A stretch of 64,000 nucleotides of DNA, from the NCBI GenBank assembly GCA_035708745.1, contig DASTFJ010000250.1, forward strand, positions 76,987 through 140,986, in the 5' to 3' direction. Position numbers and translations under genes: made by a program. This document shows, one piece after another, positions 2,523 through 12,163 of this stretch. How positions within the stretch are numbered: the first letter of the stretch is position 1; each line of letters begins with the position of its first letter. The notes beneath the pieces are model-generated. The model was not told where the DNA came from and ran no database searches. It saw only the letters and a program-made list of their open reading frames with translations. Source of the DNA: Thermomicrobiales bacterium. Lineage in GTDB: Bacteria > Chloroflexota > Chloroflexia > Thermomicrobiales > UBA6265.

Positions 2523-3271
2523 AACAGCAACCGCACCAGCAGGTTGCGCACGGGATCGATCATCTCGCTGGTGAGTGACGAACCAATCCGCCCACCCAGG
2601 AAGAAGATCAGGAACAGGATCAGGAAACCGTAGCGTTCCAGCGGAGCCAGCACCGGGGTCCAGAACCTCGGCAGGATACCGACCATGATCTTATAACCGT
2701 CGAGCGGCGGCAGCGGGATTGCATTGAACGACGCCAGCAGGACATTCACCCAGAAGAACCAATACGCCACATATCCGAAATCACTGGTGTTTGCATTGGT
2801 GTTTCGCACGACGACTGCCGCAAGCGCCGCCAGTACGACATTGGTCAGCGGGCCGGCCAACGCCACGAGCGCCATGCCCCGGTGCCGCTGGTCTGGCGGC
2901 AACACCCGAAGCTGGCTTGGATTGACCGGAACCGGTTTACCCCATCCGATGAAGTTGTACCCCAATGAAATGAGCACCATGCCCATGAAGCCGAACGGCT
3001 CGAAATGGGACACCGGATTCAGCGTCACTCGCCCCTGCCGCTCGGCCGTGGTATCGCCCAATCGGAGCGCTACCACTGCGTGCATGAGCTCGTGCACAGA
3101 GATCGCCACCACAAAGCACAGCAGCACCGTGACGATCTGTTTGGTTGGCGGCAGCGTGTGATTGTTCAACAGCTGCCCCAGGAGCAGGAGCAGCATGATG
3201 ATATAGATCCCGGAATTCGGACTTCCGCGGCTTACAAAATGCAGCTTATGCCGGTCGGGATCGTGCAGCAC
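2519..3271 (-). CDS. Site-2 protease family zinc metalloprotease (peptidase M50)
   Basis: HELMHAVVA (HExxH) motif inside a polytopic membrane protein. GTG start at 3271. Confidence 0.8.
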   Translation of the reverse strand: MLHDPDRHKLHFVSRGSPNSGIYIIMLLLLLGQLLNNHTLPPTKQIVTVLLCFVVAISVHELMHAVVALRLGDTTAERQGRVTLNPVSHFEPFGFMGMVLISLGYNFIGWGKPVPVNPSQLRVLPPDQRHRGMALVALAGPLTNVVLAALAAVVVRNTNANTSDFGYVAYWFFWVNVLLASFNAIPLPPLDGYKIMVGILPRFWTPVLAPLERYGFLILFLIFFLGGRIGSSLTSEMIDPVRNLLVRLLL

Positions 3272-3274
3272 CGG

Positions 3275-4314
3275 CTATGCGCCGGAACCCGGGTAGAGAT
3301 GGCACGCGACGAAGTGCTCGTTACCCTGATCGGCCAGGATCGGGTCGATCTGCTTACAGACATCCATCACATACGGGCACCGAGTGTGGAAATGACACCC
3401 GCTCGGTGGATTGATCGGGCTCGGCACGTCACCGGTCAGGATGATCCGCTCCCGCTTTCGCTCGATGACCGGATCCGGAATCGGAACTGCGGACAGGAGT
3501 GCTTTCGTATAGGGATGCAACGGATCGTCATACAACGCGTTCCGCCCCGCCAATTCGACGATCTTGCCCAGATACATCACGGCTACGCGGTCGGAGATAT
3601 GGCGCACGACCGAGAGGTCGTGGGCGATGAAGAGATACGTCAGACTGAATTCGTTCTGCAGATCTTCCAGCAGGTTAACGATCTGCGCCTGAATCGACAC
3701 GTCCAACGCGGAGACCGGCTCGTCGCAAACGATGAAGTCCGGATTCGCCGCCAGCGCCCGGGCAATGCCGATCCGCTGCCGCTGACCCCCGGAAAACTCA
3801 TGCGGATAGCGATTGGCGAAATATGGATTGAGACCGACCGTCTGGAGGAGCTCCTGCACCCGCTGGTTGCGCTGATTTTTCGGCACCAGATTGTGAATTT
3901 GCATTGGCTCGGAGACGATGCTGCCGACCGTCATACGTGGATTCAGCGACGCATAGGGATCCTGGAAGATCATCTGCAGGTGGCGGCGCATCTTGCGCAT
4001 CTCGCCACCATTCAACTTGGTGAGGTCCTGACCGTTGAAGATCACTTCGCCCGCCGTCGGCTTGTACAGCTGCAAGATCGCGCGGCCGGTGGTCGACTTG
4101 CCGCAACCCGACTCTCCCACCAGTCCGAGGGTCTCGCCTTTCTTGACGGAGAGCGACACGCCATCCACGGCTTGCACCGCGCCGACCTTCTTCTGGAAAA
4201 TGATTCCTTGGGTCAGCGGAAAGTGCATGACCAGATTGCGCACGTCGAGCAGCGGTTGCTGTCCATCGACGTTGCCGCTGGCGGCAATCGCAGACGTCTG
4301 GTTATCGACCGCCA

Positions 4315-4315
<1 letters not shown>
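3275..4315 (-). CDS. Oligopeptide/dipeptide-type ABC transporter ATP-binding protein (OppF/DppF-like)
   Basis: Walker [10 protein letters not shown], signature FSGGQRQR, Walker [13 protein letters not shown], and a Cys-rich Opp-type C-terminal tail. I chose the ATG at 4315, which overlaps the upstream stop (TGATG), not the longer track ORF. Confidence 0.85.
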
Positions 4316-5391
<1,076 letters not shown>

Positions 5392-7364: not shown

Positions 7365-7956
7365 ATGGCGTACGGGTTCGCCCGACCGCGCGTCCTGCTC
7401 ATCGACCGGCGCGGCTGCGCCCTCCTCTTCTGCGCGGCCGGTTCCGATGGGCAGCCGTTCTGGTTCACTCCCGGAGGCGGGCCCAAACCAGATGAGACAC
7501 CGGAAGCTGCAGTTCTCCGGGAGCTCGAAGAAGAAACCGGACTCCGCCACGCCGGAGCTCGAACGAGAAATCTGGTGGCGCACGCTGCATATCCCATTCG
7601 ATGGAGAAGTGCGCGAGATCCACCAGCGATGGTTTCTCGTTCGTACCGATCGCTTTGTGCTCTGCACCTCCGTTTTCGATCAATTGGAGCTCGACACTAT
7701 GATCGAGCACCGCTGGTGGACTGCCAGCGAGCTTCGAGCTACCTCCGACCGAATCGTTCCGGCAGATCTCGGCGCCAGGTTGGCCGATCTGCTGCGCGGT
7801 GGTTCACCCGCGATTCCCGTGGATATCTCGACCGGTCACGTTCGATTGCGGTGTCCTGAATTTCACTGGGTCGAGCTGCATGCTAGGCTGGCGCTTGGGT
7901 GGCCGTGGGCACTCGCCGAACGCCTTCCGATTCAATTGCCATCCTTCAGCATTTAG
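7365..7956 (+). pseudogene. Nudix hydrolase with an apparent +1 frameshift near 7551-7553
   Basis: The Nudix box GGGPKPDETPEAAVLRELEEETGL is in the frame starting at 7365. The conserved C-terminal part (ELEREIWWRTLHIPFDG...HRWWTASEL) continues in the frame that ends at 7956. Confidence 0.7.
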
Positions 7957-7963
7957 AGGAACC

Positions 7964-8716
7964 GTGAATCCCTCGACACGACCCAACGGTCAAGAGGCAG
8001 CCACGCCAATGCACGTCACAGGACACGACCTCGGCGAAATCCGTCTCTTCGCCCACCTACCGGTCACGACGCTCCAGGCGATTGCCGAGCGAGGCCGCAT
8101 CGAGCGCGTTCATCGCGGAGACTTCCTCTTCTTCGAAGGAGATCCGGCCACCAGCGCCCATTTTCTGCTCGACGGCCGAGTGAAAATCGTCCACGAAACG
8201 GAAGACGGACAAGAAGTCATTCTTCGCCTGGTCCAGACCGGGGATATTTTCGGTGGCGCCGGCGGTTGGGGCGATCGTGTCTATCCCGCGACGGCCATCG
8301 CGTTGGACGATGCCCTCATTTTCATCGTTCCGGTCTCAGCATTCACCTTGCTCCTCACCCGCTATCCCGAATTTGCAATGGCGATGATCCAGGAAATGGG
8401 AACGCGCCTGCGCGAAGCCGAGGCTCGCATTCGCGAATTGCAAGCCGAACGCGTCGAACGCCGCATCGCTCGCACCCTGCTGCGATTGGCCGGCAAAACC
8501 GGAACGAAAACCAACGAGGGCATCCAGATCGAACTTCCGCAGTCCCGCCAGCATTTGGCGGACCTTTCTGGCGCCACGCTTAGCACAGTCAGCCGGGTCC
8601 TGAGCGAGTGGGACCGCCAGGGGCTGATTGTCGCTGGCCGTGAGCGCCTGACCATCGCAAAACCTCATCAACTCGTCATGATCGCGGAAGACGCGACCGC
8701 ATCCGACCAGGATTGA
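7964..8716 (+). CDS. Crp/Fnr family transcriptional regulator
   Basis: cNMP-binding-like N-terminal domain and a C-terminal HTH (QHLADLSGATLSTVSRVLSEW). GTG at 7964 follows AGAGGA. An alternative ATG lies at 8009. Confidence 0.85.
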   Translation: MNPSTRPNGQEAATPMHVTGHDLGEIRLFAHLPVTTLQAIAERGRIERVHRGDFLFFEGDPATSAHFLLDGRVKIVHETEDGQEVILRLVQTGDIFGGAGGWGDRVYPATAIALDDALIFIVPVSAFTLLLTRYPEFAMAMIQEMGTRLREAEARIRELQAERVERRIARTLLRLAGKTGTKTNEGIQIELPQSRQHLADLSGATLSTVSRVLSEWDRQGLIVAGRERLTIAKPHQLVMIAEDATASDQD

Positions 8717-8733
8717 CTTTCCATTTCGCTTCT

Positions 8734-8747
8734 TTGCGCTAGCGCAA
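8734..8747. promoter_or_regulatory. Perfect 14-bp palindrome TTGCGCTAGCGCAA (Crp/Fnr-type box, TTGCG-N4-CGCAA)
   Basis: Seen directly. It lies 18 bp after the regulator stop and about 60 bp upstream of the next gene start. Confidence 0.6.
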
Positions 8748-8807
8748 CGACAACTCCTCACCGAAGTGAGAGCCTGAGACTGAAATGAGAGGTCGCAGGA
8801 GTCGCTG

Positions 8808-9038
8808 GTGCCCAAACACGCGGAAACAATCACGAGCGAAACCGTAATCGATTGGGTAATGACCACCTACCCGAGCACGGTTTCCGTGTTTCTCCACTGG
8901 CGCATGCAGTGCGTCGGTTGCCCAATCGCAAGGTTCGAATCGATTGCAGACGCCTGTCTGATGCACCAGCGACCGGTTGGGCCATTCCTCACCGAGCTCC
9001 GCATGGCAGCAGCTGAAGTCATCCCGGAACAGTTATGA
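8808..9038 (+). CDS. DUF1858-type redox-disulfide domain protein (hybrid-cluster-protein-associated type)
   Basis: 76 aa with CVGC (CxxC) in the MQCVGCPIA context. GTG start at 8808 is preceded by AGGAG. Confidence 0.7.
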   Translation: MPKHAETITSETVIDWVMTTYPSTVSVFLHWRMQCVGCPIARFESIADACLMHQRPVGPFLTELRMAAAEVIPEQL

Positions 9039-9054
9039 CGAGCGCAAGGGAACT

Positions 9055-9366
9055 ATGGAAACAATGACGGAAACCGAAGCCTCCGTATGGGACGTGCTTC
9101 ACAGTGTCATCGACCCGGAGGTGGGTATCAACATCGTCGATCTCGGATTGGTGTACGGCGTCGATATCGACGGTGACGATGTCAAGGTCACCATGACCCT
9201 GACCACACCCGGCTGCCCGCTGCACGACACCATTGCCGAGGCAGTCGATACCTCGATTCACTATTTCGTTCCCTATTGCGAAAACGTTAGCATCGACCTC
9301 GTCTGGGAGCCGCGCTGGTCCCCGTCGATGATTACCGAGGCTGGTCTGAAAGCGCTGGGTTGGTAA
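9055..9366 (+). CDS. DUF59/MIP18-family metal-sulfur cluster assembly factor (SufT/PaaD-like)
   Basis: VIDPEVGINIVDLGLVY and TLTTPGCPL motifs. ATG at 9055 follows AAGGGA. Confidence 0.8.
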   Translation: METMTETEASVWDVLHSVIDPEVGINIVDLGLVYGVDIDGDDVKVTMTLTTPGCPLHDTIAEAVDTSIHYFVPYCENVSIDLVWEPRWSPSMITEAGLKALGW

Positions 9367-9368
9367 AG

Positions 9369-10238
9369 ATGGCTTCTCCCTCTTCGGTATCCGCGGCCGC
9401 CCCTATCACCCCCAACTGGAAGATCAGCGAGGTGTTGCAAGTTCACCCAGAGTTGCTCGATGTCCTCATCGAGACGGCGCCAGAATTCAAGAAGTTGCGC
9501 AATCCGATCTTGCGACGCGTCCAGAGCAAACTCGTCACCGTGGGCCAGGCAGCCCAGATCGCCGGTCTCGAACCCGCCTATCTGGTCGACCGTCTCAATG
9601 CGGCGGCTGGTATCCAGGGTCCAGTTGCCGACAAGTCCGAGGATTCGAGCTCTTCGATACCGAAACCCGAACCACCGTGGGTAGATGCAGCAACTATCGC
9701 CCAGTGGATCGATGTTCGACCCTACCAGCAACGTGGCGAAGAACCGTTCAGCGCCATCATGGCCGCCATCCGCGAGGTGCCTCGGGGACAGGTGCTGCTG
9801 TTGCGCAATACCTTCGAACCAACTCCCTTGTACGACATTCTCGGCCAACGCGGATTCGAGCACTGGGCGACGCAACTGGGAGAAAGCGACTGGGAAATTC
9901 GCTTCTTCCACGCCGGATCGGCTCGTACGTCGCAGCAACCCGCGAATGCGCCGGACACTGCGCGAGCTCATGACACTTGGGACGACCCCACTTCCACGCT
10001 GACGATCGATGTAAGCGAGCTCGTTCCGCCTGAACCGATGATTCGGATCCTGACCGCCCTCGAGGAGCTACCGGATGGCGCGAGCCTGCTCGTCCATCAT
10101 GTCCGTCGCCCGATGCATCTTTATCCCCGCCTGGATGAGCTCGGATATCACCATGACACCCGCGAGATCGGGCCTGCACAGGTCGAAATTCTCATTGAAA
10201 AGCCTGCAGCCCCAGTCCCGGTGATAGGTGCGCGATGA
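9369..10238 (+). CDS. Fusion protein: DUF1858-like N-terminal domain plus two DUF2249-like domains
   Basis: The N-terminus resembles the 8808 product but lacks CxxC. Two repeats of about 70 aa match the pattern of the 81-aa product at 11578. Confidence 0.75.
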   Translation: MASPSSVSAAAPITPNWKISEVLQVHPELLDVLIETAPEFKKLRNPILRRVQSKLVTVGQAAQIAGLEPAYLVDRLNAAAGIQGPVADKSEDSSSSIPKPEPPWVDAATIAQWIDVRPYQQRGEEPFSAIMAAIREVPRGQVLLLRNTFEPTPLYDILGQRGFEHWATQLGESDWEIRFFHAGSARTSQQPANAPDTARAHDTWDDPTSTLTIDVSELVPPEPMIRILTALEELPDGASLLVHHVRRPMHLYPRLDELGYHHDTREIGPAQVEILIEKPAAPVPVIGAR

Positions 10239-11581
10239 CAGGCGGTCCCGGGGGGCTGAGCTCGAAGCACGGCCCGGCACTCGATCTTCCCGGTCGTTTC
10301 ATGGCGCTCGCCATGCTGATGCTGGCCGTGGTTGCCGTGGTGTCCCCCTGGGCGTATCGATGGCTCATCGATGGGTTCTATGCCCCACAACTCCTGGCGT
10401 TCGTCCATCTCAACACGCTGGGCGTCATCGCGGCCGTGCTCATGGGAGCCAGTTACCAACTCGTCCCGGTGGTCTTGCAGACCCCGATCGCCTCAGTGCG
10501 GCTTGGCCGCCTGTCGTTTTGGTTCTATCTCGCGGGCATCGTCCTGTTCCTGCCCGGTCTGCTCGAACATTGGCGTCCCGGCATAGCCGCCGGTGCCGCG
10601 TTGGTGTTCTCAGCGTTGCTCGTCTATCTCGGTATCGTGGCGCTGACTCTGCACCGGGCGCCATCGTCCGATGTGGTCTCCTGGCACATCGCCGTTTCAC
10701 TCGTCGGCTTGGCTGGAGGCATTGGGGCCGGTTTCCTGCTCGCGCTGAACAAGGGCGCGGGATTCCTCGAGTCCGCAACATTTCGCGTGCTCGCTGCTCA
10801 CGCAACGCTGATGCTGGCTGGCTGGGTCATCATCATGTTGAACGGAGTGGCCTATCGCCTCGTCGGCATGTTCACCCTGTCCGAAGACCGCCTGTGGCGC
10901 CCGGTCGCGTGGGCTGAGCTCGCATGCTCTGCTTCCGGCGCGTGGCTCCTCGCTACCGGCCTCCTTCTGAATGCCCCCCGGTGGTTGCTCGCGGCTGGAG
11001 CGCTAACGATTGTGGGTGGCCAAGCGCTCTTTGGCGCCCAACTGATCCATCTCTACCGAGTGCGCCGCAGGCGCGGATTCGACATTCATATTCAGTTTGC
11101 GCTGGCGGCAATCACCTGCGGGCTACTCTGTTCCGGCTTGCTGGCCGGAGGTCTCCTTACTCACCGTTCGATCGACTCGCCCGTCTGGATAGCGGTGGGC
11201 TGGCTGGCAATTTCCGGAGTGGCCATTACCGCCATTCAGGGGTTCTTCTACAAGATTGCGACCTTTCTCATTTGGCTACACCGATATGCACCCATCGCGG
11301 GCCGCAGCCGCGTTCCTCGTCTCGAGGATCTGTACGACCGGCGAATCGCGAAGACTGGTTGGGCGTTCTGGGTATCCGGGCTGGCGAGCTCGCTCGTCGC
11401 CATCCTAATTTCGAACCGTTCCCTGGCAACGGCCGCGGGTGTCGTGGCACTTGCAGGGTTGGGTTGTTTTCTCGCAAACGCCGGGCGTATCGCCGCACAC
11501 GCGCGGCCCGGCACTGCGGGGAGTGAATTTTCGGCTCGGATTCGGTTTTCCGGAACGGGCAAGGAAGGACAGGTTTCATGA
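10235..11581 (+). CDS. 12-TM integral membrane protein with intramembrane histidines, family unassigned
   Basis: 448 aa. I count about 12 hydrophobic helices. ATGA overlaps at both ends (10235-10238 and 11578-11581). Confidence 0.75.
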   Translation: MTGGPGGLSSKHGPALDLPGRFMALAMLMLAVVAVVSPWAYRWLIDGFYAPQLLAFVHLNTLGVIAAVLMGASYQLVPVVLQTPIASVRLGRLSFWFYLAGIVLFLPGLLEHWRPGIAAGAALVFSALLVYLGIVALTLHRAPSSDVVSWHIAVSLVGLAGGIGAGFLLALNKGAGFLESATFRVLAAHATLMLAGWVIIMLNGVAYRLVGMFTLSEDRLWRPVAWAELACSASGAWLLATGLLLNAPRWLLAAGALTIVGGQALFGAQLIHLYRVRRRRGFDIHIQFALAAITCGLLCSGLLAGGLLTHRSIDSPVWIAVGWLAISGVAITAIQGFFYKIATFLIWLHRYAPIAGRSRVPRLEDLYDRRIAKTGWAFWVSGLASSLVAILISNRSLATAAGVVALAGLGCFLANAGRIAAHARPGTAGSEFSARIRFSGTGKEGQVS

Positions 11582-11823
11582 CCGACAAGACCGCTGCTAC
11601 CGTCGAGGTCGACGTGCGAAACATGGTGCCACGCGAGCGGCATCCGTTGATTTTCGCCACCATCGATGAGCTCGCCGCCGGCGAAACGATGCTGCTCATC
11701 AATGATCACGATCCCAAGCCACTGTATTATCAACTGATGGCCGAGCGCGCCGGTCAGGTTGGCTGGGAATATATCGAAAACGGCCCCACGGTTTGGCAGG
11801 TTCAAATCACAAAGCTCGGTTGA
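11578..11823 (+). CDS. DUF2249 domain protein
   Basis: 81 aa. The pattern VDVRNMVPRERHPLIFATIDELAAGETMLLINDHDPKPLYYQL is typical of DUF2249. Confidence 0.75.
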   Translation: MTDKTAATVEVDVRNMVPRERHPLIFATIDELAAGETMLLINDHDPKPLYYQLMAERAGQVGWEYIENGPTVWQVQITKLG

Positions 11824-11836
11824 ACTCGTAACGATT

Positions 11837-11869
11837 CGGCATCTGGCGACGTTGTGTCGCCCGATGCCG
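11837..11869 (+). terminator. Strong hairpin after the operon; no U tract
   Basis: CGGCAUC-U-GGCGAC / GUUGU / GUCGCC-C-GAUGCCG gives 13 bp with one mismatch. Confidence 0.45.
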
Positions 11870-11905: not shown

Positions 11906-12163
11906 GTGCGCGGACAAGACTTTGTGACGAACGAGCAACGCAAGCGACATGGCGCCGGTGGGAAGTCGGAAGACTCAGCGTCCCGCCCTCAACAGCAACT
12001 CGATCGACCGCCCAAATCGGGTACCGGTCGGGTCGTGCAAGGCAATCCGGAAAAGAAAACATCGTCAGAACGTCCAGATGTTGTCGAGGAAGCATCGGAA
12101 GATTCGTTTCCAGCAAGCGATCCCCCGAACTGGGCAACCGGACAGCAACGAAACCCCGGATGA
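11906..12163 (+). CDS. Small hydrophilic protein with a C-terminal DSFPASDPP motif
   Basis: 85-aa ORF with a GTG start. The SFPASDPP motif recurs in small conserved bacterial proteins (from memory). The start is uncertain. Confidence 0.45.
   Translation: MRGQDFVTNEQRKRHGAGGKSEDSASRPQQQLDRPPKSGTGRVVQGNPEKKTSSERPDVVEEASEDSFPASDPPNWATGQQRNPG

Follow-up and report, generated by a model that had tools for sequence, protein, structure and literature searches.

A Crp/Fnr-linked operon in a soil Thermomicrobiales bacterium, with Drp-like genes and a stripped-down relative of the respiratory oxidases

Results

Genes and elements of the locus

The stretch of 64,000 nucleotides that was analysed, here called the window, carries an operon of a soil member of the Thermomicrobiales (the public sequencing runs found for the organism are of soil DNA only). 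It combines a dedicated Crp/Fnr-type switch and a conserved box with a core that is a stripped-down relative of the respiratory oxidases. Its genes and elements are the following.

8009..8716, + strand: Crp/Fnr-family regulator (Pfam), 235 aa from the ATG at 8009; alternative in-frame GTG at 7964
8730..8751, + strand: predicted operator, made up of the palindrome (8734-8747) and its conserved flanks, CT-T on the upstream and nGAC on the downstream side
8767..8775, + strand: extended -10-like element TGAGAGCCT, from a fixed-register profile of 31 promoters
8808..9038, + strand: small CxxC DUF1858 protein, 76 aa, GTG start, AGGAG at 8797-8801
9055..9366, + strand: DUF59 / SufT-like protein (FeS_assembly_P), 103 aa, conserved cysteine in TPGCP
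9360..10238, + strand: DrpB-like protein, DUF1858 + 2x DUF2249, 292 aa from the TTG at 9360, or starting at the ATG at 9369
10235..11581, + strand: 12-TM homologue of heme-copper oxidase / NOR subunit I, 448 aa (AlphaFold, Foldseek)
11578..11823, + strand: DrpA-like single DUF2249 protein, 81 aa (PF10006, 1e-31)
11838..11868, + strand: GC-rich hairpin closing the operon (folding z-score)

Every domain call of an earlier note on this DNA stands after HMM annotation of the products with Pfam and NCBIfam. The ORF coordinates bear out the two ATGA overlaps (10235 and 11578) that it took as translational coupling of the last three genes. The hairpin that it saw after the operon lies at 11838-11868, has no U tract, and sits in 86 nt that fold at -39.5 kcal/mol (z = -3.9).

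The regulator matches cNMP_binding (6e-19) and HTH_Crp_2 (4e-16) in Pfam and falls far under the cut-offs of all the NCBIfam equivalogs. In the orthologue alignment it has no cysteine, and hence none of the O2-sensing, Fe-S-binding cysteines of FNR; the cAMP-contact residues of CRP are also absent, and a conserved FGGAGGWG..YPA pocket is kept. Its recognition helix reads T-L-S-T-V-S-R, with T-L-S-T-x-S-R invariant in 19 orthologues. By a published specificity rule (PMC1274295), the serine that stands where CRP has Glu181 is consistent with a half-site other than TTGAT.

The 76-aa CxxC protein matches PF08984 (1e-11) and, over the cut-off, TIGR03980 (1e-19), the 'hybrid cluster protein-associated redox disulfide domain'; its homologues with NMR structures, 2k53 and 2k5e, have no function assigned. 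The 103-aa DUF59 protein matches PF01883 (2e-19) and lies under the cut-offs of the SufT and PaaD equivalogs. The DUF2249 modules of the DrpB-like protein look TusA-like, yet have no cysteine in an alignment of 35 orthologues. The claim that none of the components has an established role has to be given up for DrpA/DrpB, on the evidence of Thermus genetics (PMC6282519), and for DUF59/SufT, whose role in Fe-S protein maturation has been demonstrated (PMC4982691).

A conserved box and promoter

The palindrome TTGCGCTAGCGCAA is found at 8734-8747, directly after the Crp/Fnr gene as had been described, 18 nt past its stop. The earlier note linked TTGCG half-sites to NO-responsive NnrR/Dnr-type members, which is correct for NnrR, whose published consensus is ctTTGcgnnnncgCAAag (PMC1274295). 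Thirty-one related Chloroflexota promoters align in one ungapped register, CTcT-TTGCGCyAGCGCAA-aGAC-N16-TGnNAnnCT. Box positions 1-3, 6, 9 and 12-14, and GA at +16/+17, are invariant in 31/31; the 16-nt spacer between the box flank and the -10 element is barely conserved (0.05-0.5 bits per position), and within that element G at -14 is kept in 28, A at -11 in 29 and T at -7 in 26 of the 31. The box centre lies 29.5 nt from the start of the -10 hexamer in all 31 promoters, the geometry of a class II Crp/Fnr activator (-41.5). Transcription is predicted to start near 8782. The downstream GAC of the operator doubles as a partly conserved -35 core that the box overlaps, and the -10 hexamer here is poor (GAGCCT).

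In orthologous promoters the palindrome persists, with 0-2 mismatches, in 17/17 crp-DUF1858 intergenic regions, and where the gene order differs the box precedes the DUF59 or the ferredoxin gene. Among the 35 loci whose upstream sequence is long enough, it is present in 19/19 that have the regulator gene as against 3/16 that do not (Fisher p = 4e-7, with shared ancestry ignored). A scan of the whole genome found the 5-N4-5 pattern 4 times versus 7 for the reversed control, the 6-N2-6 form once versus twice, and one-mismatch sites 36 versus 41 times, with no excess. TTGCGCTAGCGCAA is statistically unremarkable within this genome, and the comparison across genomes strongly marks it as a real cis-element. 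The full promoter architecture occurs only at the operon site, both in this genome and in five related whole genomes, which points to the operon as the output of the regulator. A second, one-mismatch match at 8918-8931, inside the CxxC codons, has none of the extended features and was judged to be chance. Conserved position, fixed -10 spacing and co-occurrence support the box as the predicted operator of the adjacent regulator.

An oxidase-like membrane protein

The AlphaFold model of the membrane protein (pLDDT 87) has 12 helices, and its best 35 Foldseek matches in the PDB are all heme-copper oxidase or NO reductase (HCO/NOR) subunit I, with TM-scores of 0.55-0.71; PF00115 gives a weak match of 21 bits, under its cut-off. 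On this fold the protein belongs to the heme-copper oxidase superfamily, and we place it in the 'HCO homology' type of Pei et al. 2014. Its structural neighbours in the atlas include NnrS (TM-score 0.76-0.82); it has no PF05940 match and is therefore not a member of the NnrS family.

H58 and H189 are the only histidines invariant family-wide in the alignments, H151 and H285 being invariant only inside the Thermomicrobiales group and lying near the cytoplasmic side, and the binuclear-centre histidines are absent. With only two invariant histidines, the protein probably binds a single bis-His heme and lacks a catalytic centre. It would be a single-heme b protein rather than a catalyst of O2 or NO reduction, with ligation by H58/H189 resting on fold symmetry and on a weak profile match, in which hhalign aligns the protein to TM10-12 of COX1 (E = 1e-3).

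Conservation and neighbouring genes

The set DUF59-DrpB-membrane protein-DrpA recurs in every locus with enough sequence. The DrpA-like gene follows the membrane-protein gene in nearly all loci, the DUF59 gene stays adjacent in distant family members, and the regulator gene adjoins the operon in 22 loci; 16/35 loci with enough upstream sequence keep the module without it. Natural fusions join the membrane protein to DUF59 (P0241, P0266) and DUF2249 to the membrane protein (P0134), and atlas clusters pair the membrane protein with DUF2249, and NnrS with DUF1858. A ferredoxin gene is added in 17 related loci and a hemerythrin gene in 11, neither of which is in the window's own operon; together with DUF1858 the two resemble a split RIC/YtfE. 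CopD-like copper proteins occur in 5 loci.

The module had been said to have no canonical reductase or oxidase partner in the window; in some relatives, however, a quinol NO reductase or an A-type oxidase subunit lies behind the same box. In L036 the box and -10 element lie before a 758-aa quinol NO reductase, the single NO reductase case in 49 loci. In L011 and L049 they lie before orphan A-type COX1 genes with GHPEVY and AHFHY motifs. A third locus, L020, carries a 77%-identical COX1 about 2 kb upstream of its only box, and no box was found before this gene. Because the box precedes A-type O2 reductase subunits in relatives and the link to NO reductase is single, an oxygen signal is equally compatible. 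The window's own genome (96% complete) has an A-type oxidase, no narG, hcp, quinol NOR or nar operon, and a NirK-like gene that scores under the cut-off, so that the organism is not an evident denitrifier.

Discussion

The gene set around the Drp genes and the oxidase-like protein is widespread and linked to nitrogen-oxide stress. The module itself is known; what is new is this Thermomicrobiales member, a clean copy. Most likely it is an NO- or low-oxygen-induced system maintaining metal centres, and the earlier proposal of a redox-, O2- or NO-responsive metallocentre-handling module, in its hedged form, is the best fit to the evidence.

We give slightly better than even chances to a regulated membrane complex that acts as an effector. 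A Crp/Fnr dimer would bind TTGCGC-YR-GCGCAA, a site whose centre is placed some 41.5 bp before the transcription start, and activate the extended -10 promoter in a class II manner, NO or oxygen limitation being the likeliest inducing signal. The transcript would begin near 8782, end with the hairpin (11868) and also yield the small CxxC DUF1858 protein. The membrane protein would keep a histidine pair that matches the low-spin heme site by the three-fold pseudo-symmetry of the fold, and the DrpB-like, DrpA-like and DUF59 proteins would be cytoplasmic partners docking on its cytoplasmic face; ATGA coupling, natural fusions, atlas clusters and the kept DUF59 adjacency suggest such a complex. More than a sensor, it would act at the membrane on exposure to nitrogen oxides or a drop in oxygen, protecting, repairing or supplying iron, Fe-S or heme centres, a role analogous to that of NnrS together with RIC/YtfE. 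The quinol NO reductase of L036, the ferredoxin and hemerythrin genes of related operons, the NnrR-like form of the box, and published work on Thermus drpAB (PMC6282519), Haloferax DUF2249 genes (PMC11218638) and SufT (PMC4982691) speak for a tie to nitrogen oxides and metal centres; a genome that is not evidently that of a denitrifier speaks against it.

Alternatively, the membrane heme protein may sense NO, nitrate or O2, with DrpB and DrpA relaying its state to the regulator, for instance as an anti-activator, and the operon serving as a feedback sensor. In Thermus, drpAB deletion makes the nar and dnr promoters nitrate-independent, and expression becomes constitutive once DrpB is lost (PMC6282519); in the present system the regulator gene adjoins the operon in those 22 loci and its product has no recognisable cofactor motif, so that a protein partner could supply its signal. 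We nevertheless regard this as unlikely: in this genome and five relatives a sensor whose sole full promoter site is its own would serve no purpose, the module outlives the regulator gene in 16/35 loci, and the DUF59, ferredoxin and hemerythrin partners and the DUF59 fusions point to metal-centre chemistry.

Somewhat less probable again is an accessory of oxygen limitation, in which the regulator answers low O2 with no specific nitrogen-oxide link, and the oxidase-like protein and its partners aid heme-copper oxidase assembly or form an alternative or scaffold subunit. The COX1 genes of L011 and L049, that of L020 (with no box found before it), the CopD-like proteins, the COX1 homology of the membrane protein, and a genome with an A-type oxidase and without NOR agree with it. 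Against it are the quinol NO reductase under the same box in L036, a regulator without O2-sensing FNR cysteines, partners (hemerythrin, DUF1858 and DUF59) of a kind typical of systems for NO / Fe-S stress, and the published links between denitrification regulons and genes for DUF2249 and DUF1858 proteins (PMC6282519, PMC11218638, PMC6710368, PMC1274295).

Repression, with the regulator occupying the -35 region and barring RNA polymerase until it is released by a signal, is improbable, for although the box abuts and overlaps an invariant GAC, a plausible -35 core 17 bp from the -10 hexamer, and Thermus DnrT represses some operons too (PMC5748679), a repressor needs no fixed phase, whereas all 31 promoters keep exactly the class II distance, and poor -10 hexamers are typical of activator-dependent promoters.

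Comparison with known systems

ScdA_N-like DUF1858, DUF59 and hemerythrin are what makes up a system that maintains Fe-S centres under NO stress. The operon is like RIC/YtfE/ScdA and SufT in its ScdA_N-like DUF1858 and DUF59/SufT-like proteins, with hemerythrin in the 11 related loci; unlike in RIC/YtfE/ScdA, the parts are separate genes, tied to a putative membrane heme protein.

The 12-TM HCO-homology (HCOH) proteins and NnrS of Pei et al. 2014 reportedly share the oxidase/NOR subunit I fold of three four-helix units, and are said to have only two conserved histidines and neighbourhoods with DUF2249 and denitrification genes. The membrane protein resembles them in its fold, its two family-wide histidines and its DUF2249 neighbours, and differs in the two extra invariant histidines of its Thermomicrobiales subgroup, H151 and H285. 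The DUF2249 link of HCOH neighbourhoods is cited in PMC11218638, where Haloferax denitrification induces DUF2249 genes.

By motif form the operator is like that of NnrR (PMC1274295), and the regulator is like the NnrR/Dnr types in having no FNR cysteines and a class II-type placement. Bradyrhizobium diazoefficiens has boxes such as TTGCGCTATCGCAA and TTGCGCGAGCGCAA before nnrR and hemN2, and its DUF1858 gene adjoining nnrR is expressed less in an nnrR mutant (listed value -29.2) (PMC6710368). Unlike NnrR/Dnr systems, the host is a member of the Chloroflexota, and in most of the genomes covered the regulon amounts to one operon.

By architecture the operon is like Thermus thermophilus drpA-drpB, which are co-transcribed, depend on DnrT and affect nar expression, the 273-aa DrpB being cytoplasmic and partly membrane-associated (PMC6282519). 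The Thermus study gives DrpAB a regulatory, nitrate-sensing role and not one in repair, which counts against an effector (PMC6282519). Both systems pair a DUF1858 + 2x DUF2249 protein (about 270-290 aa) with a single-DUF2249 protein (about 70-80 aa), and as drpAB has a Crp-family activator in DnrT, so the operon here is tied to a Crp/Fnr-family regulator. The Thermus palindrome, TTGACC-N2-GGTCA (PMC5748679), has the same geometry and different bases. Unlike Thermus, this genome has no nar operon, and DUF59 and CxxC DUF1858 genes precede the drp genes, which flank the 12-TM oxidase-like gene and are translationally coupled to it, in the order B-membrane protein-A as against A-B in Thermus.

Results

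Gene content of the operon

The window belongs to contig C250 of a MAG of 4.29 Mb that is 96% complete. Its nearest protein matches come from Thermomicrobiales and other Chloroflexota, from soil, and the sequencing runs containing the locus are of soil DNA only. An ORF listing, together with Pfam and NCBIfam scans, bore out all the gene calls of the earlier note, and overall we judge the feature to be real and the earlier reading of it to be good. The locus comprises the following elements.

Elements of the locus (window coordinates)
8009-8716, Crp/Fnr regulator, 235 aa (Pfam)
8734-8747, box, TTGCGCTAGCGCAA
8770-8775, -10 hexamer GAGCCT, preceded by TG at 8767-8768
8808-9038, CxxC DUF1858 protein, 76 aa (Pfam and TIGR03980 match)
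9055-9366, DUF59 protein (Pfam)
9360-10238, DrpB-like DUF1858 + 2x DUF2249 protein (Pfam)
10235-11581, membrane protein, 448 aa
11578-11823, DrpA-like DUF2249 protein, 81 aa
11838-11868, strong hairpin 3' of the operon, without a U tract

The CxxC DUF1858 gene has a GTG start at 8808 with AGGAG 6 nt 5' of it, and the TIGR03980 model matched by its product describes a 'hybrid cluster protein-associated redox disulfide domain'. The last three genes of the operon are coupled by ATGA overlaps. After the hairpin comes a cytochrome P450 gene (12228-13379), as it does in L005 and L006, the two nearest relatives, and an 85-aa ORF between the operon and this gene (11906-12163) has no Pfam match. Upstream of the regulator, a Nudix gene (7365-7956) matches its model over residues 10-82 only of a 164-aa frame, which is consistent with the frameshift in the earlier note.

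The box and its promoter

Scanning the collection with the membrane-protein alignment gave 49 Chloroflexota loci. The earlier reading depended on the palindrome being present at orthologous promoters, and we found it, with 0-2 mismatches, in every one of the 17 crp-DUF1858 spacers; where the gene order differs, the box precedes a DUF59 or ferredoxin gene. In a single ungapped register, 31 promoters give the consensus CTcT-TTGCGCyAGCGCAA-aGAC-N16-TGnNAnnCT, in which no variation is seen at box positions 1-3, 6, 9 and 12-14 or in the GA at +16/+17; the -10 region has G at -14 in 28 of the 31, A at -11 in 29 and T at -7 in 26. The 16-nt spacer between box and -10 holds just 0.05-0.5 bits per position and this near lack of information shows that selection, rather than recent shared ancestry, has kept the box. 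From the box centre to the hexamer downstream the distance is 29.5 nt. If the hexamer is taken as -12 to -7, the box centre falls at -41.5, the position at which class II activators of the Crp/Fnr type bind. Transcription is predicted to start near 8782. The box may, alternatively, serve in repression and not activation.

Box counts within the window's genome show no excess over control at 0, 1 or 2 mismatches. The 5-N4-5 pattern is not enriched (4 sites vs 7 in the reversed control), and the 6-N2-6 form gives 1 site vs 2, with one-mismatch sites at 36 vs 41, so that on this genome alone the box cannot be called significant. A further match at 8918-8931 was rejected as an operator, as it lies inside the CxxC-motif codons and lacks the extended features.

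The regulator

The regulator is a member of the Crp/Fnr superfamily (PF00027 6e-19, PF13545 4e-16, PF00325 9e-7), and all NCBIfam equivalogs (NtcA, CRP, FixK, Fnr and others) fall far below their cut-offs. FNR has a cysteine cluster that ligates an O2-labile [4Fe-4S] centre. FNR proper was rejected, since the 235 residues of the regulator include no cysteine and none is conserved among its orthologues; the protein is therefore not an FNR-type Fe-S sensor, and it scores 55 bits on the Fnr model vs a cut-off of 228. CRP is defined by the cAMP-contacting Arg82/Ser83 and an R-E-x-x-x-R recognition helix. CRP proper was likewise rejected (76 bits vs a cut-off of 266), the cAMP-contact residues being missing and the recognition helix reading L-S-T-V-S-R. 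Leu and Ser of this helix stand at the positions of CRP Arg180 and Glu181, and T-L-S-T-x-S-R is invariant in 19 orthologues. Judged by the rule that links recognition-helix residues to the half-site in the Crp/Fnr family (PMC1274295), such a helix would fit a TTG-type half-site departing from TTGAT. The orthologue alignment also reveals a distinctive FGGAGGWG..YPA motif in the pocket of the beta-roll, and the nearest solved structures are those of NtcA (2e-23), with DNR scoring 3e-16. Box and regulator gene go together: the box is found at 19 of 19 loci with the gene and at 3 of 16 without it (Fisher p = 4e-7, kinship ignored).

Predicted targets of the regulator and nitrogen-oxide genes

A genome-wide box scan had been proposed as a means of defining the regulon. 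It showed the full architecture at the operon site and yielded no further sites for a wider regulon: across the window's genome and five related whole genomes, complete promoter architecture occurs at the operon's own site only, none of the one-mismatch sites in the window's genome stands out, and the five relatives have no extra box match with a -10 element in register. The regulator is therefore local.

Among the scanned loci, L036 has a second box, free of mismatches and in register with its -10, preceding the gene of a 758-aa quinol NO reductase (2775-5206) with NorB_cytochrome_c-like and COX1 domains, directly upstream of that genome's regulator gene. At L011 the box and a -10 element stand in front of DUF1858-ferredoxin-COX1, and a COX1 gene of L049 follows a box whose -10 is in register; no box was found in front of the 77%-identical COX1 of L020, which lies about 2 kb upstream of the sole box of that locus. 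These three are orphan genes of the A type.

Orphan A-type COX1 genes
L011:2250-4937
L020:2810-4705
L049:3483-5243

GHPEVY and AHFHY are intact in all three, and no subunit II gene adjoins them; the L011 product is a canonical A-type oxidase subunit, and the L049 copy is split over two frames. With such a regulon content (NO reductase, COX1), the signal could be NO, low oxygen or the two together. Alternatively, the operon may serve in respiratory assembly in response to oxygen.

Searches of the 96%-complete window genome for narG, hcp and quinol NOR found none of them. With no quinol NOR in the genome, the operon cannot be the accessory of a resident NO reductase. A NirK-like candidate remains below the cut-off. 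The genome has the following pair of cupredoxin-type genes.

Cupredoxin genes of the window's genome (G000)
C255:1073-3191, two adjoining cupredoxin-type genes, one matching the copper nitrite reductase model (nearly full length, 169 bits vs a cut-off of 296)

The membrane protein

The AlphaFold model of the membrane protein, built with 25 homologues, has 12 helices and a pLDDT of 87. A Foldseek search of the PDB gave subunit I of heme-copper oxidases (HCO) or NO reductases (NOR) in each of its top 35 matches, with TM-scores of 0.55-0.71 (for example cbb3 CcoN, E = 2e-9, and cNOR NorB, 3e-7). In the PDB these homologues are seen by fold search only, a profile search of its sequences having returned nothing. 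A profile comparison with quinol NOR gave no meaningful match, and the COX1 sequence model touches residues 55-106 only (PF00115 21 bits vs a cut-off of 34.8). By the positive-inside rule both termini are cytoplasmic. NnrS was rejected as the identity of the protein, there being no PF05940 match at E <= 0.01. NnrS clusters are structural neighbours in the Atlas, where the neighbours come from Gemmatimonadota, Pseudomonadota, Bacteroidota, Campylobacterota and Actinomycetota.

The family numbers 2818 clusters at 50% identity (E <= 0.001). Among 40 members down to 20% identity (family-wide alignment A2), H58 in TM2 and H189 in TM6 are the sole invariant histidines; H151 (TM5) and H285 (TM9), both close to the cytoplasmic end of the helix, are invariant in the Thermomicrobiales subgroup only, and TM7 and TM10 have no conserved histidines. 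Catalytic HCO and NOR subunits use six histidines to ligate a low-spin heme, a high-spin heme and CuB/FeB. Assignment to this class was rejected, as just H58 and H189 are invariant family-wide. By hhalign against the A-type COX1 that the same genome encodes, residues 50-141 match TM10-12 (E = 1e-3), so placed that H58 aligns with the second His of AHFHY, a low-spin heme ligand, and the first His, a high-spin heme ligand, is replaced by Phe. Under the three-fold pseudo-symmetry of the fold, the TM2/TM6 pair would be the rotational equivalent of the TM10/TM2 low-spin-heme pair. Taken together, the histidine pattern and the pseudo-symmetry suggest that the protein probably holds one bis-His heme and no binuclear centre, and a catalytic O2 or NO reductase role is not expected.

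The window's genome has a second cluster with oxidase homology (G000 C117:15226-17336, L061:3226-5336, minus strand), encoding a ScdA_N (DUF542) protein of 137 aa, a four-helix COX1-like protein of 148 aa (a single evolutionary unit) and a COX1-like protein of 416 aa, all of which match PF00115 weakly.

Conservation of the cluster and its partners

The expectation that the gene set would be conserved as a cluster held: of the 49 loci, practically all that are long enough keep DUF59-DrpB-membrane protein-DrpA, and the regulator and CxxC DUF1858 genes are present in about 22. An 82-aa, two-cluster ferredoxin is encoded between DUF1858 and DUF59 in 17 loci (e.g. L009:6504-6752, L005:6542-6787); the window's operon is without it, having a 16-nt gap at 9039-9054, and the nearest copy in the genome (75% identity) is on contig C78:30316-30555. 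A hemerythrin gene lies 3' of drpA in 11 loci and that of a CopD-like protein in 5. Some long-read MAGs have frame breaks in the DrpB or membrane-protein genes (L009:7147-8013, L048:7167-9267, L053:7170-9289), and these in-frame stops and split frames reflect either faulty assembly or decay of the copies.

In distant family members from other samples DUF59 adjoins the membrane-protein gene, and the Drp genes are often kept too. In two members, P0241 and P0266, the membrane protein carries DUF59 fused to its C-terminus, and in P0134 an N-terminal DUF2249 is fused with the membrane protein, which might be a gene-calling artefact across the ATGA overlap. Atlas clusters combine the membrane protein with DUF2249, and NnrS with DUF1858. 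Fusions, Atlas clusters and ATGA coupling together argue for docking of the soluble operon proteins on the membrane protein from its cytoplasmic side.

On the SufT models the DUF59 protein (PF01883 2e-19) stays below cut-off, scoring 84 on TIGR02945 vs 143 and 90 on TIGR03406 vs 203, and its gene is not beside suf genes. DUF59/SufT aids Fe-S protein maturation at high demand, and DUF59-DUF1858 fusions occur (PMC4982691). No solved relative of the DUF2249 protein is detectable by sequence.

Discussion

The operon belongs to a known gene module that is biochemically unsolved, and we know of no biochemical activity for the oxidase-like family or for the DUF2249, DUF1858 and DUF59 proteins present here. 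New in this work are the definition of a class II promoter, the co-occurrence of box and regulator gene, a signature of two histidines and the evidence that fusions provide for a complex.

The operon may have a signalling role, as has been put forward for Thermus. That it is an effector is more likely, because in most genomes examined it is the only strong target of the regulator, and a sensor with itself as sole output would be pointless. As an effector, the operon would protect or rebuild centres that contain iron when NO or low oxygen causes stress. Its parts point to such a function, as they include a putative heme-binding membrane protein, a SufT-like protein, a ScdA_N-like CxxC protein and TusA-like, cysteine-free DUF2249 modules, to which relatives add ferredoxin and hemerythrin. 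We put forward a fuller scheme tentatively, and with more doubt than confidence: the membrane protein, DrpB, DrpA and DUF59 would form an uncharacterised membrane machine, in which a single b heme, in a pore that is empty in true oxidases, senses or traps NO and drives the rebuilding or delivery of iron or Fe-S centres, and the Crp/Fnr activator would sense through the new FGGAGGWG..YPA pocket, using neither Fe-S nor cAMP.

The oxidase-like family is widespread and recurs with DUF2249, DUF1858, DUF59 and nitrogen-oxide respiration genes. The window's locus offers an unusually clean handle on it, with one dedicated regulator, one operator of defined geometry and one operon, so that direct tests of induction, of mutated operators and of what the two histidines do are feasible; cultured relatives (Sphaerobacter, Thermomicrobium, Nitrolancea) or Thermus are possible test organisms.

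Several known systems resemble this one. The 'HCO homology' proteins of Pei et al. 2014 are said to have 12 TM in three units, a best match to HCO TM9-12 and two conserved histidines; the membrane protein agrees with this description in its 12 TM, its TM10-12 match and its two histidines. The window and Thermus have in common the DrpA/DrpB architecture pair in one operon (PMC6282519). In Thermus thermophilus, DrpA (DUF2249) and DrpB (DUF1858 + 2x DUF2249) are co-transcribed downstream of nar, depend on DnrT, a Crp-family activator, and are required for nitrate-dependent nar and dnr control, DrpB being cytoplasmic and partly membrane-bound (PMC6282519). The Thermus drp genes sit by the nar operon, whereas those of the window do not, no narG having been found in the 96%-complete genome. 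DUF2249 is, we presume, the same family as COG4309. A COG4309 gene family is co-transcribed with nor genes (PMC1274295), and Haloferax DUF2249 genes, one of them fused to an Fe-S carrier NTPase, are up in denitrification (PMC11218638).

In operator form there is a likeness to the NnrR/Dnr group, whose TTGCG-N4-CGCAA type the window's box shares: TTGCGCyAGCGCAA is the consensus of the 31 promoters, one of which stands in front of a quinol NO reductase gene. The earlier note had linked TTGCG half-sites to such regulators, correctly in the case of NnrR, for which the published consensus is ctTTGcgnnnncgCAAag (PMC1274295). Bradyrhizobium diazoefficiens has TTGCGCTATCGCAA at nnrR, TTGCGCGAGCGCAA at hemN2 and TTGCGTCGGCGCAA at norE, and a DUF1858 gene adjoining its nnrR is less expressed when nnrR is mutated (listed value -29.2) (PMC6710368). 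With the window's locus, operator logic of the NnrR type reaches into Chloroflexota.
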